Below are positions 976 through 22,282 of a stretch of DNA of 64,000 bases, piece by piece. The stretch comes from Escherichia phage phiWec186. Under the pieces are notes generated by a model that was given only the letters and a program-made list of their open reading frames with translations, was not told where the DNA came from and did no database searches. Each line of letters starts with the position of its first letter. Position 1 is the stretch's first letter. The stretch lies in the sequence record LC739535.1, one strand, 5' to 3'. A program made the translations under genes and the position numbers.

Positions 976-1034
976 TGTTCACCTCTCTTAATAATGTAGG
1001 GCTATTGTACACTAAAAATATTTCAGGTCAAGTG

Positions 1035-1062
1035 TTGACAAGCTTTTTGGTTCTGTTATGAT
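1035..1062 (+). promoter_or_regulatory. sigma70-like promoter TTGACA-N16-TATGAT
   Basis: TTGACA at 1035-1040 and TATGAT at 1057-1062, about 30 nt upstream of the 1093 start. Confidence 0.55.
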
Positions 1063-1092
1063 TAGCTCATACTAAATGAGAGGAGAAAACAA

Positions 1093-1530
1093 ATGCAAAA
1101 CATCAAACTGACTTGGACCGAAGCTAAAGAAGCAATGAAGGAAGGTAGACGTGTTAAACACGAGTATTTCTGTGGTGGGGAATGGTTTGAGATGCAATAT
1201 GGTGTTATTCTGGACGAACATGGTTATAATATGACTGATTGGTATCGTGACGAAGCTTGGCAGGATGATGGTTGGTCTGTGGTTGAGAAAGAAGGTAATG
1301 AGGAAGAAGGACTGTTGTCTAATGTAGAGCGCGAAATGCGGGAAACAAAGGTGCCCGAACTGGACTACCATCACCTGGAACTTCTTGTGGCAGCATCTTT
1401 CGCTACTGGAGATACAATGTGGCAAACTCCGGTGTCCCGTGTCGATAACCAAAATAAACCGTCTGCCCGTAATCACAAGCTTTACAAAGGTAAAGGTCAT
1501 AACAAACTGAAGAAAGGAAAGAAGAAATGA
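1093..1530 (+). CDS. DUF2829-like protein (possible Tad2-like)
   Basis: SD GAGAGGAG upstream. N-terminus LTWTEAKEAMKEGRRVKHEYF fits the DUF2829 pattern as I recall it; Lys-rich C-terminal tail. Confidence 0.4.
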   Translation: MQNIKLTWTEAKEAMKEGRRVKHEYFCGGEWFEMQYGVILDEHGYNMTDWYRDEAWQDDGWSVVEKEGNEEEGLLSNVEREMRETKVPELDYHHLELLVAASFATGDTMWQTPVSRVDNQNKPSARNHKLYKGKGHNKLKKGKKK

Positions 1531-4934: not shown

Positions 4935-5293
4935 GAGAAACAATCGTAGATGTTGTTATTAATGGACAACGTTATGTACCTGTTATAGAGAAAGCTGAAC
5001 CAGACGCTTTAGATGTTGTCTTTGAAGATGATGATCTTGGCACTGTTACTGTACGTGAATATTTCAGACGACTACTCTCTACACTTTGGGAAGAAGAAGA
5101 CAGTTTTAGTGGAAAACGACCTTTTGGTAACTCTTGCTGGCAGTTCGATTTGATTATCGGTTTGATCGATGCTGGCTACCTGGAGGGTAAAGTTTATCGT
5201 GACGAAGATGGAGGTATAGAAGATACCGACTATGATCGTGAAGAAGCAGATAAACTCATTCAAGGTCTAATTTCACGTATGTGTTTGGGGTAA
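4931..5293 (+). CDS. hypothetical protein
   Basis: SD AAGGAGGA; coupled. Confidence 0.55.
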   Translation: MRETIVDVVINGQRYVPVIEKAEPDALDVVFEDDDLGTVTVREYFRRLLSTLWEEEDSFSGKRPFGNSCWQFDLIIGLIDAGYLEGKVYRDEDGGIEDTDYDREEADKLIQGLISRMCLG

Positions 5294-5294
5294 T

Positions 5295-5663
5295 ATGAAA
5301 GTCTTGAACTTCTACCATTTAGGTAAAGTTGTTCCCGACACTGCAATATACATTGGACGCGCGATGCCCCACTTCGGGTTGAAAGCGTCAAAGTTTGCCA
5401 ACCCGTTCAAACTGAAAGAGGATGAACCAAGAGGTGCTACCATTCAAAGATACAAAGAGTGGTTGTGGGATCAGATCCGTTCTGGTAAGATAACTCTTGA
5501 AGATTTGTTGGAGTTGGAAGGTAAAGATGTAGTCTGCTTTTGCTCGCCCCAGAAATGTCATGGAGATGTGCTCGTTGCAGCCGTGGCATGGGCGCGAAGG
5601 GAATACGATAGACGTAATCCACCGTTTACGGATGGGTATTGGAACTGGGAGGAAAATCTATGA
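5295..5663 (+). CDS. conserved phage protein (DUF4326-like motif)
   Basis: AIYIGR...ANPF...VVCFCSPQKCHGDVL pattern. Confidence 0.4.
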   Translation: MKVLNFYHLGKVVPDTAIYIGRAMPHFGLKASKFANPFKLKEDEPRGATIQRYKEWLWDQIRSGKITLEDLLELEGKDVVCFCSPQKCHGDVLVAAVAWARREYDRRNPPFTDGYWNWEENL

Positions 5664-8399: not shown

Positions 8400-8959
8400 A
8401 TGGGGAAGTCATTGCCAATGCGATCCACTATTACGGACGCTATGCACAAATGATTCAAGTACCTTACCTGGTAGATGCAGATATTCTTGCATACACACTA
8501 CCAGAAGGTAAAGAGGATCGCCCTTTGGGGCATCCTAATGGGAGATTCTATGTTGCCAGCGCAGAACAATCCTTCCTCCAGATGGAGAAAGATGGTTTTG
8601 AGTTTGTAGCAGAGCATCCTTATATGGCATTGACACCATGTTACCGCACAGAAGATGTTCTTGATGAAAGTCATTTTAACATCTTTCTGAAACTGGAACT
8701 AATTGAGTTTTATCCGAAACATGGGCCTATAGCATATGCAAAGGATATGTGTAATTTTCTTTGGACCTATTATAGTCTGGAAACACGTATAGTAAAAACT
8801 GAAATAGGGTTTGACGTGGAAGACAAATATGGGTTAGAATTAGGATCATTCGGGATGAAGAATTCTCCGAAAGGTCATCCGTACATGTATGCCACAGGCA
8901 TAGCAGAACCACGAGCATCTATTGCTCTTAACCACAGAGAGGGGTTTATTTATGAATAA
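8396..8959 (+). CDS. hypothetical protein
   Basis: 187 aa coupled ORF; weak class-II-ligase-like YRTED motif only. Confidence 0.5.
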   Translation: MNGEVIANAIHYYGRYAQMIQVPYLVDADILAYTLPEGKEDRPLGHPNGRFYVASAEQSFLQMEKDGFEFVAEHPYMALTPCYRTEDVLDESHFNIFLKLELIEFYPKHGPIAYAKDMCNFLWTYYSLETRIVKTEIGFDVEDKYGLELGSFGMKNSPKGHPYMYATGIAEPRASIALNHREGFIYE

Positions 8960-10451
8960 GTCGATGGAAGAATTAGTTAAATATTATGTCCACACAGAAG
9001 ACCTGACAGACGCAGAGTTTACCAAGATTTATGATCTGTGCGAACAGCTTCAACCTGGCCCGTGGAACAGTGAAGAAGACTTCCGTGCCGATGTTAATCA
9101 AGATACAGGGTTTTTGTTCTTCGATCCTGCTAATGGCATTGATGCCGTACACAACGAAGATTATATCCCAGCAGGTCTTTCTGTTACCACTACAGAGCAT
9201 TTCGTTGATCTGCTTTTGGAGACAGCTTGGTGTGATTCCAAACCAATCTACTACTGCATGAAGGATACGCTACGTATGGCAGCAAGTCGCCTGTATGACG
9301 GGAACTCTCGCTTATATACGGCTGTAGCCGAGCTTTATGGTAATGGTTGGACTGCCGATCAACTCCAAAAAGCTTGGGAAGAAGGGCGTGGTGGGCGTGA
9401 CGTTGTTATTTTCTCTGAAGTTTTAGGGGTGGATTCTATCGCTTATGAAAATATTCCACGCTTAGGGACAAAACCAGAAATCATTGATGGAGAAGAAATG
9501 TTAGATCTTATTTTAGCTAAAGTGGCAGGGCGATCTATTCACGAAGTGTGCGTATCTACCAGAAAGATCTCCACAAGTCAAATGGAATCTCTTTTAAAGA
9601 TTTTCACCCTGGTGACTGGTGAAGGGTATTGGAAAGATGCTGAACATTTTCTGATGTATAGTCGTGGTCTGTCTGAACACTACTCTTTCTATAGTTCTAA
9701 GTCGGGGATTGATGGTCACAACAGTCCACAAGGATTAGAAATAGGTGTTGACGAATTTATCAAACTGTTTTTGAAGCATTTAGGTATTGACAATACCGAG
9801 AAATCATTGGAAGATATCCTTGCTGACTTAACAAAAGAAGGAGAAGAAGTGGAAGAGAATACTTTTGAAGTTGAAGAATATGTGGAAGAATACCTTCCGA
9901 ACCCTGGGTTCCCTCCAGAGGGTAATCCTTATGTGAAGATCGTCTGCCGTAACGGGCAAACTTTCACAGGTCCAGCCGACGATATGGGTTGGAGGGTCGA
10001 TGAGAACCATCCCCATGATCTGGATATGGTGAAATATATGATTGTTCCGCGTGTAGCCAAAGTGGAGGCTGCTCCAGATGAGGTAGTTGCTCCGGTATAT
10101 GCACCGAAGCCACGTTATCGTAAGACGCGCCAAAAGCCTCCTGTAGGTAAGAAGCCAGTTGTGCGTATTCTCTACACTACACAACAAACGTACATGTTTA
10201 AGAATGTGGACAGTGTGCAGGTTACAGGTGAGAAAGTGTATATCCAGTATGCTCGTAATATTGCAGAAGGTATTGTTGAGTCTGTTGTTTCCGAGATCGA
10301 CAGCAATCTGCTTCTCGCAGTGGTGATTGAAGAGAATGGACACCGTGATAATTTCTTAGCTAACATCGACGGTTCTTGGGATTACCAAGGGCATGATGGT
10401 ACTGCCGTTAAAGGTGGTAAGCTGATGGGACGACAGTTCCTTTCTAAATAA
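8952..10451 (+). CDS. hypothetical protein
   Basis: About 500 aa ORF; ATG at 8952 after GAGAGGGG. Confidence 0.55.
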   Translation: MNKSMEELVKYYVHTEDLTDAEFTKIYDLCEQLQPGPWNSEEDFRADVNQDTGFLFFDPANGIDAVHNEDYIPAGLSVTTTEHFVDLLLETAWCDSKPIYYCMKDTLRMAASRLYDGNSRLYTAVAELYGNGWTADQLQKAWEEGRGGRDVVIFSEVLGVDSIAYENIPRLGTKPEIIDGEEMLDLILAKVAGRSIHEVCVSTRKISTSQMESLLKIFTLVTGEGYWKDAEHFLMYSRGLSEHYSFYSSKSGIDGHNSPQGLEIGVDEFIKLFLKHLGIDNTEKSLEDILADLTKEGEEVEENTFEVEEYVEEYLPNPGFPPEGNPYVKIVCRNGQTFTGPADDMGWRVDENHPHDLDMVKYMIVPRVAKVEAAPDEVVAPVYAPKPRYRKTRQKPPVGKKPVVRILYTTQQTYMFKNVDSVQVTGEKVYIQYARNIAEGIVESVVSEIDSNLLLAVVIEENGHRDNFLANIDGSWDYQGHDGTAVKGGKLMGRQFLSK

Positions 10452-22043: not shown

Positions 22044-22282
22044 TCGACACGCTGATCTCTCAAACGGTGTTGCAAGTGATGCGTGAGAGAGAAGCTTTCA
22101 TCATGAAGGGTCTTAAAGATTATTTTGGGACTCTTTCTTTGGAAGAACTCAAACTACGCGTTGAGATCCATGCGTATCCTTCTTATGAAGAATGGATTGA
22201 CAAAGCAAATAAAGCTGTTATAATGCGTATCAACAAACCAGAAATCACGACAGGAGGACAAGATGTTAAATTTCGCCATTAA
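22040..22282 (+). CDS. hypothetical protein
   Basis: ATGA-coupled ORF; weak SD. Confidence 0.4.
   Translation: MIDTLISQTVLQVMREREAFIMKGLKDYFGTLSLEELKLRVEIHAYPSYEEWIDKANKAVIMRINKPEITTGGQDVKFRH

Follow-up and report, generated by a model that had tools for sequence, protein, structure and literature searches.

An important question raised by this locus is whether the gene at positions 1093-1530 of Escherichia phage phiWec186 encodes a sponge of the Tad2 type. Among phage sponges, the Tad2 family has the widest distribution and the greatest versatility. Its ligands include 3'cADPR, His-ADPR, N7-cADPR, cCMP/cUMP and cyclic dinucleotides (PMC12393519; PMC10680739). A preliminary description of the window (the whole stretch of DNA that was analysed, 64,000 nucleotides of record LC739535.1) had suggested a possible Tad2-type immune-signal sponge based on the resemblance of the N-terminal motif to DUF2829/Tad2. 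Our analysis gives a divided answer: the predicted fold is Tad2-like, yet neither membership of PF11195 nor an anti-Thoeris sponge function is supported. The gene represents a stripped-down and re-tooled family with the Tad2 fold, and in the present case it bears a unique polybasic tail. In this relative the core fold is preserved but all polar residues that contact the signal are exchanged, and it offers a concrete lead to a new ligand specificity or anti-defence mechanism in well-studied groups of coliphages.

The open reading frame was found as first described, with its ATG at 1093, the quoted N-terminal sequence and a length of 145 aa plus stop (1093..1530, plus strand). In phage phiWec181 (LC739534.1; Stephanstirmvirinae, Phapecoctavirus), which is 100% identical to the window's first 4 kb, its counterpart is the CDS BDU12442.1, deposited as a 'hypothetical protein', and within Phapecoctavirus the gene is near-universal rather than patchy. 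The product matches phrog_22208 over its full length (E 1.8e-79) and phrog_3474 over aa 4-65 (E 2.7e-30), making it a direct member of two families without annotated function; this membership names the gene and explains nothing of what it does. Given the phrog_22208 match, 21 close homologues of 53-95% identity, 195 hits in a profile search with the protein's family against 1.84 billion representative proteins, and synonymous changes in the codons underlying invariant residues, we judge on comparative grounds that this is a real conserved gene and that a chance ORF is excluded. An ORF of 142 aa runs antisense to it at 1072-1500 on the minus strand and is open also in an IMG/VR relative; we treated it as a shadow of the real gene.

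Upstream lies a promoter-like site of the sigma-70 type (1035..1062, plus strand), composed of TTGACA at 1035-1040, a 16-nt spacer and an extended -10 element, TGnTATGAT, at 1054-1062. It matches the consensus at 11 of 12 positions, contains the TG and stands 31 nt 5' of the ATG. The -35 hexamer and the TG are kept in ESCO13 and JohannJBalmer/Bas62 (Justusliebigvirus), where the homologue again opens a rightward block at a divergent junction, and the gene is the first cistron behind this site in two genera, Phapecoctavirus and Justusliebigvirus. A Shine-Dalgarno sequence, AGGAG (1081..1085, plus strand), invariant in a three-genome alignment, is located 7 nt 5' of the ATG. At the other end, the ATG of the next gene at 1527 overlaps the stop codon, and the last codons supply that gene's ribosome-binding region. 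Over the scanned 2.4-kb region, the total number of promoter-like sites was not above that in shuffles. The earlier reading of a first gene after an early promoter was right about the first gene and about a conserved, near-consensus promoter-like site, while 'early' expression is what we infer from the sigma-70 type of the promoter alone.

The head domain and its distance from Tad2

The N-terminal part of the protein (aa 5-65; 1105..1287, plus strand) was delimited as a minimal Tad2-like domain by predicted structure and family conservation. An exhaustive profile search identified it as a widespread phage domain of ~60 aa that mostly stands alone, with the consensus MTxxEAxxAMxxGxKVxHxYFxxxExxxMxxGxIxxExGYxxxxFWxxRxxxxWxxGWxI; every hallmark of the signature M-T-x-x-E-A-x-x-A-M-x-x-G-x-K-V-x-H-x-Y-F-x-x-x-E ... 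E-x-G-Y ... W-x-x-G-W-x-I is present in the 145-aa protein. The hallmark residues of this family, here termed mini-Tad2-like, are A11, G18, H23, F26, E30, E42, G44, Y45, W56, G60 and W61. Among 68 diverse members, H23 is conserved in 60, F26 in 62, E30 in 66 and E42 in 64, and each of these four as well as G44, W56, G60 and W61 is kept in 50-66. By tblastn, the domain occurs in at least about 500 phage records, with every copy annotated as hypothetical; carriers include Phapecoctavirus, Justusliebigvirus, Vequintavirinae, T4-like Klebsiella phages, T5-like Salmonella phages, Erwinia phage Y2, FelixO1-like phages and the BASEL phage Bas62. In sequenced enterobacterial phages, the mini-Tad2-like family is at least as frequent as canonical Tad2 (about 500 vs 416 records). 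One member (P0043) carries a tandem duplication of the domain, and one profile hit, a 2,489-aa repeat protein (P0053), was dropped as it was judged to represent local Tudor/SH3-like similarity.

Two stand-alone copies, which likewise match phrog_3474/phrog_22208, illustrate the genomic setting of the domain. Salmonella phage SH9 encodes a 66-aa copy (5001-5201) that adjoins homologues of T5.014 and T5.015 and thus lies in synteny with the part of T5 annotated as first-step-transfer (pre-early) DNA; in that region of T5 itself, no copy of the domain was found. In the T4-like Klebsiella phage JD18, the copy is located in a cluster of small ORFs between the nrd genes and gp55. The pre-early synteny in SH9, the small-ORF cluster in JD18, the first-gene position at our locus and the ~500 records point to an accessory, early-type context. 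As a side observation, the SH9 copy fills the slot of T5.016/T5.017 (T5 8681-9157), genes that are not detectably related to it, and since unrelated genes share this position, the end of T5-type first-step-transfer DNA may be a variable accessory slot.

Structure prediction links the head to Tad2. While the full-length model averaged a pLDDT of 66.9 and fell to 46-62 in the linker and tail, the head modelled alone as a monomer with 68 diverse sequences reached a pLDDT of 90.3 and a pTM of 0.76. The model consists of a helix at 8-16, strands at 20-23, 32-35 and 38-41, a short helix at 55-58 and a strand at 61-64. In a Foldseek search of the PDB, 11 of the 12 top hits were Tad2 chains (SPO1 Tad2, ModTad2, SptTad2), with TM scores of 0.55-0.65, probabilities of up to 0.97 and a clear gap to other folds; the E-values were weak (0.28-1.7), as is expected for so small a domain. 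The structure comparison thus agrees with the initial suggestion, and the fold of aa 5-65, as predicted, is Tad2-like.

At the sequence level, direct HMM comparison with DUF2829 spoke against the family membership implied by the preliminary description. A Pfam scan of the 145-aa protein returned nothing at E<=10, hence no PF11195, NCBIfam and PADLOC scans gave no match, and a DUF2829 HMM that we built from 120 PF11195-annotated proteins scored the product at 5.0 bits and found no canonical DUF2829 gene elsewhere in the window. Among 148 family representatives, 21 gave sub-threshold matches to PF11195 'Tad2-like', with a best E-value of 2.9e-4; SEC-C came second in frequency with four members, and no other Pfam family recurred like PF11195. 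Comparison of the family with the DUF2829 alignment by hhalign gave a probability of 95% and an E-value of 3.5e-8 over aa 4-37 (90-95% for the N-terminal half), and 74% and 2.8e-5 when the alignment spanned the entire domain and contained a single long gap. The real score was 40.0, against 11.0 +/- 2.3 (maximum 21.2) for 60 column shuffles and 11.8 for the reversed control. Reciprocal HMM searches yielded many weak matches; all of them kept the register of the N-terminal helix, several that of the C-terminal strand as well, and phrog_2709 was weakly matched by both the mini-Tad2-like family and SptTad2.

The C-terminal half alone, however, aligned no better than shuffled columns by hhalign, which is why we claim sequence homology for the N-terminal half (alpha1-beta1-loop-beta2) only. 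The hhalign -glob alignment mis-aligned the C-terminal half, and the local and whole-domain gapped alignments were used instead. A search of the family HMM against PDB sequences was not significant, with SptTad2 in fourth place (E 0.65); its matches to PHIKZ087 and FlaI were regarded as chance, as was the influenza HA2 coiled coil, the sole phmmer match of the 145-aa protein in the PDB (E >= 0.12). From these profile comparisons we conclude that the head is a remote relative, or distant homologue, of Tad2 and that the protein belongs to a family of its own, phrog_3474/phrog_22208, outside Pfam PF11195. The resemblance of the N-terminal motif to DUF2829/Tad2 is therefore one of fold and remote homology, not of PF11195 membership.

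A comparison with the Tad2 references (SPO1 gp34.65, ModTad2, HgmTad2/AcrIIA7, SptTad2, and Pfam PF11195 DUF2829/Tad2-like) indicates what is kept and what is lost. Common to both are an N-terminal helix with A-x-x-(A/L)-(M/L)-K-x-G-(K/R)-(K/R)-V, an antiparallel sheet and a C-terminal Trp strand, and both Tad2 and the gene studied here are small, phage-encoded and of early type. With 60-65 aa vs 85-104 aa, the head is about 25 residues shorter. The gcADPR site of Tad2, formed in SPO1 by W25, N26, W73, S76, T78 and D79, is reported to be conserved in about 99% of Tad2 proteins; its GWNG loop (SPO1 W25/N26, HgmTad2 W21/N22) contacts the diphosphate and ribose of gcADPR, and mutation of HgmTad2 W21/N22 and S90/T92/D93 abolishes binding (PMC10680739). 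This loop aligns with H23-E24-Y25-F26-C27 (H-x-Y-F-T in the family), where the aromatic is kept and the Asn is lost, the Asn position (SPO1 N26/Hgm N22) being F, C or T in the mini-Tad2-like family. W50 aligns with the second Trp of Tad2 (SPO1 W73), with its spacing to the last Trp preserved, and the S-x-T-D motif (SPO1 S76/T78/D79) is not conserved, its positions being R52 and residues that vary across the family; for the W50/S-x-T-D part, the alignment has the backing of structure but not of sequence statistics.

Also absent is the beta2-beta5 insertion, which in Tad2 carries alpha2 and the dimer interface and, when long, a cyclic-dinucleotide pocket (24 aa in SPO1 vs 35-41 aa in cyclic-dinucleotide-binding homologues; PMC10680739). 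In the model, strand 32-35 leads directly into strand 38-41, and hhalign leaves a gap of ~25 columns. The head is moreover more acidic than DUF2829 proteins, with a net charge of -6 in the 145-aa protein and a family mean of -3.7 vs -1.5, and it has hallmarks of its own in H23, E30 and E42. Since W-N, S-x-T-D and the insertion with its dimer interface are all missing, an anti-Thoeris function as a Tad2-type sponge, as first suggested, is unsupported by the sequence.

The linker and the polybasic tail

The head is followed by an acidic linker (aa 67-112; 1291..1428, plus strand; net charge -8), in which two helices are predicted at low confidence. Within it lies a conserved D-[FY]-x-x-L-E motif (aa 91-96; 1363-1380, plus strand), which recurs in distant two-domain homologues (P0022, P0023, P0025, P0031, P0038) whose surrounding sequence is unrelated. 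The C-terminal region (aa 113-145; 1429..1527, plus strand) is basic, with a net charge of +11, and predicted to be disordered (pLDDT <56). It contains the polybasic tail KGKGHNKLKKGKKK, an invariant C-terminal addition beyond the Tad2-like head; over aa 128-145 (nt 1474-1527, plus strand), the tail, HKLYKGKGHNKLKKGKKK, is invariant in 22 homologues.

No other segment of the protein is as strongly conserved as the tail: aa 123-145 are almost entirely invariant, and four distant clusters with an unrelated middle region (P0022, P0023, P0031, P0038) keep K-G-(K/R)-G-H-N-(K/R)-L-Q-K-R-K-K-K. Synonymous changes in the tail occur also in a contig whose next gene begins 115 nt downstream, and overlap with a downstream ribosome-binding region therefore does not explain the conservation; the codon pattern shows purifying selection at the protein level. 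When IMG/VR was scanned for KGKGHNKL as a degenerate DNA pattern, the matches came from the mini-Tad2-like family, apart from one internal match in an unrelated 225-aa ORF. This sole outside match was taken as chance, and a module shared with other families was ruled out. A tblastn search with aa 86-145 found Phapecoctavirus only; its low-complexity filter masks the tail.

Across the family, however, the C-terminal end varies. The polybasic tail is confined to a handful of clusters, and most members of the very large head family lack it. Other ends include another basic tail, a differing Cys-rich end (P0088, P0120) and, in four members (P0100, P0102, P0108, P0122), a SEC-C zinc motif, CPCGSGxKFKxCC. 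In Bas62, the Justusliebigvirus orthologue at the same genomic position is without the tail and has an unrelated phrog_11295 domain instead. Like the polybasic tail, SEC-C tails (SecA, PF02810) stand at the extreme C-terminus, with basic residues before them; the analogy is positional only, as the tail of the 145-aa protein has no cysteines and no PF02810 match. Judging from these sequences, the head is a module joined to various C-terminal ends, several of them resembling polyanion tethers.

Possible functions of the protein

Our tentative proposal, to which we give a little less than an even chance, is that the protein is an accessory binding factor of early infection, in which the head sequesters some target distinct from gcADPR and the tail localises the whole. 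It would consist of three parts: the minimal Tad2-fold head as a putative binding module, the acidic D[FY]xxLE linker and the invariant polybasic tail. By alignment, the hallmark residues fall within the pocket-forming loops of Tad2, which suggests a binding surface that has been retained and re-tooled. This pocket-equivalent surface would be made up of the beta1-beta2 loop (H23, Y25, F26, E30), the beta3 hairpin (E42, G44, Y45) and a Trp cluster (W50, W56, W61), and its target would most likely be a small host molecule. Sequestration of this molecule early in infection could serve an accessory counter-defence or host-takeover function, while the basic tail may tether the protein to a polyanion such as nucleic acid, the ribosome or a membrane. 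Our literature search found no paper describing the mini-Tad2-like family; the HHpred-collected 2,783-member Tad2 set (PMC12393519) lay outside the comparison.

A second explanation, possible although on the unlikely side, is a host-takeover factor that binds protein. In that case, the Tad2-like head would be a scaffold docking on a host protein (e.g., a defence effector, a nuclease or part of the transcription or translation machinery), the D[FY]xxLE helix would form a second contact, and the tail would hold the complex on nucleic acid or the ribosome. Direct protein inhibition is the mode of action of many small early phage proteins, and such a role would suit the modular and varying C-terminus (polybasic, SEC-C, Cys-rich or phrog_11295), an acidic and Trp-rich head, and the conserved short helical motif in the linker. 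On the other hand, most members consist of the ~60-aa head alone, which must then function by itself, and the conserved residues lie in loops equivalent to those around the pocket of a ligand-binding fold. If the protein nevertheless proved to be a protein binder, this would be a case of the Tad2 fold put to a use other than signal sequestration.

We consider it rather doubtful that the mini-Tad2-like family (phrog_3474/22208) forms a new clade of sponges with a His/Glu/aromatic pocket for a different immune or metabolic signal, the Phapecoctavirus form being tethered to a polyanion by its tail. The class in question comprises small, early, homo-oligomeric binders of immune nucleotides, namely Tad1, Acb2, Acb4, Sequestin (PF21825), Lockin and TadIV-1/T4 Vs.3; the last of these is described in its paper as structurally distinct from known sponges and was set against our gene by description only. 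The versatility of the Tad2 fold and the patchy spread of the domain in early regions across phage families are points in favour of a sponge. Points against it are the near-universal presence of the gene in its genus, the acidity of the head (the known nucleotide sponges came from searches for positively charged pockets; PMC12265669) and the lack of fusions to the sponge domains Acb4 or Sequestin. Such fusions are a common pattern for true Tad2, whereas Sequestin (PF21825) and Acb4 (PF13876) had no match in the 145-aa protein and none among its 148 relatives. Furthermore, a Tad2-like head fused to a linker and polybasic tail is unlike Tad2, and known sponges are without a long linker or tail of the kind seen here; a sponge clade with a tail tether, if true, would provide the first localised sponge. 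Either outcome, sponge or protein binder, would improve the annotation of hundreds of early genes now called 'hypothetical'.

It is improbable, in our assessment, that the protein is primarily an early nucleic-acid binder, in which the tail would be the functional part, attaching to DNA or RNA (nucleoid, ribosome or phage genome), and the head would serve to oligomerise or regulate. The strong conservation of the tail, its purifying selection at the protein level and the net +11 over aa 113-145 speak for such a role, but the restriction of the tail to few clusters of a very large, mostly tail-less head family, the tail-less Justusliebigvirus orthologue at the same genomic position and the failure of Pfam and NCBIfam/PADLOC-type HMM scans to detect a DNA-binding domain speak against it. 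Finally, a canonical anti-Thoeris sponge, i.e., a Tad2-type homotetramer sequestering 1''-3'/1''-2' gcADPR, is very improbable: no fold is closer than that of Tad2, which is also the sole remote homologue to recur, the early-operon position fits, and an aromatic (Y25 or F26) and W50 stand where Tad2 has its stacking Trp residues, but there is no PF11195 match at E<=10, the Asn is replaced and the S/T/D triad not conserved where HgmTad2 mutants lose binding, the alpha2-bearing insertion that provides the dimer interface is missing, and the family falls outside the pattern of a site reported as shared by about 99% of Tad2 proteins.

Neighbouring genes and promoter-like sites

The surroundings of the gene include several features of their own. 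The DNA at 1-732 is found only in phiWec181 and phiWec179, while other Phapecoctavirus genomes align from 733 on. The gene listed at 195-680 in this stretch belongs to a full CDS of 317 aa (LC739534.1 58247-59200; L001 5727-6680), whose product has two stretches of CapR homology (PF21817, E 1.5e-20) and a weak match of the MUG113/T5orf172 type; its sequence and distribution suggest an inserted gene of mobile or homing type. This DNA also alters the C-terminus of the adjoining DUF7325 protein (PF24011, E 7.6e-18), encoded at 673-975 on the minus strand and transcribed divergently from the gene at 1093-1530. The DUF7325 gene has its own promoter-like site (1004-1031, minus strand; TTGACC-16-TACAAT), so that the 117-bp intergenic region holds two promoter-like sites back to back (1004-1031 on the minus and 1035-1062 on the plus strand).

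Downstream, the small genes at 1674-1997 and 5295-5663, both on the plus strand, match DUF7247 (PF23905, E 3.9e-46), and by synteny with contig L011 one of them also matches DUF4326 (PF14216); the remaining genes in the operon's first 3 kb had no Pfam or PADLOC match. Over the whole window, near-consensus sigma-70 sites (>=11/12 positions) number ten on the plus strand and one on the minus strand, in agreement with gene orientation. Their distribution suggests a long early/middle region that would be transcribed by host RNA polymerase. One site at 22197-22224 is a perfect sigma-70-like match, with 12 of 12 positions and the TG.
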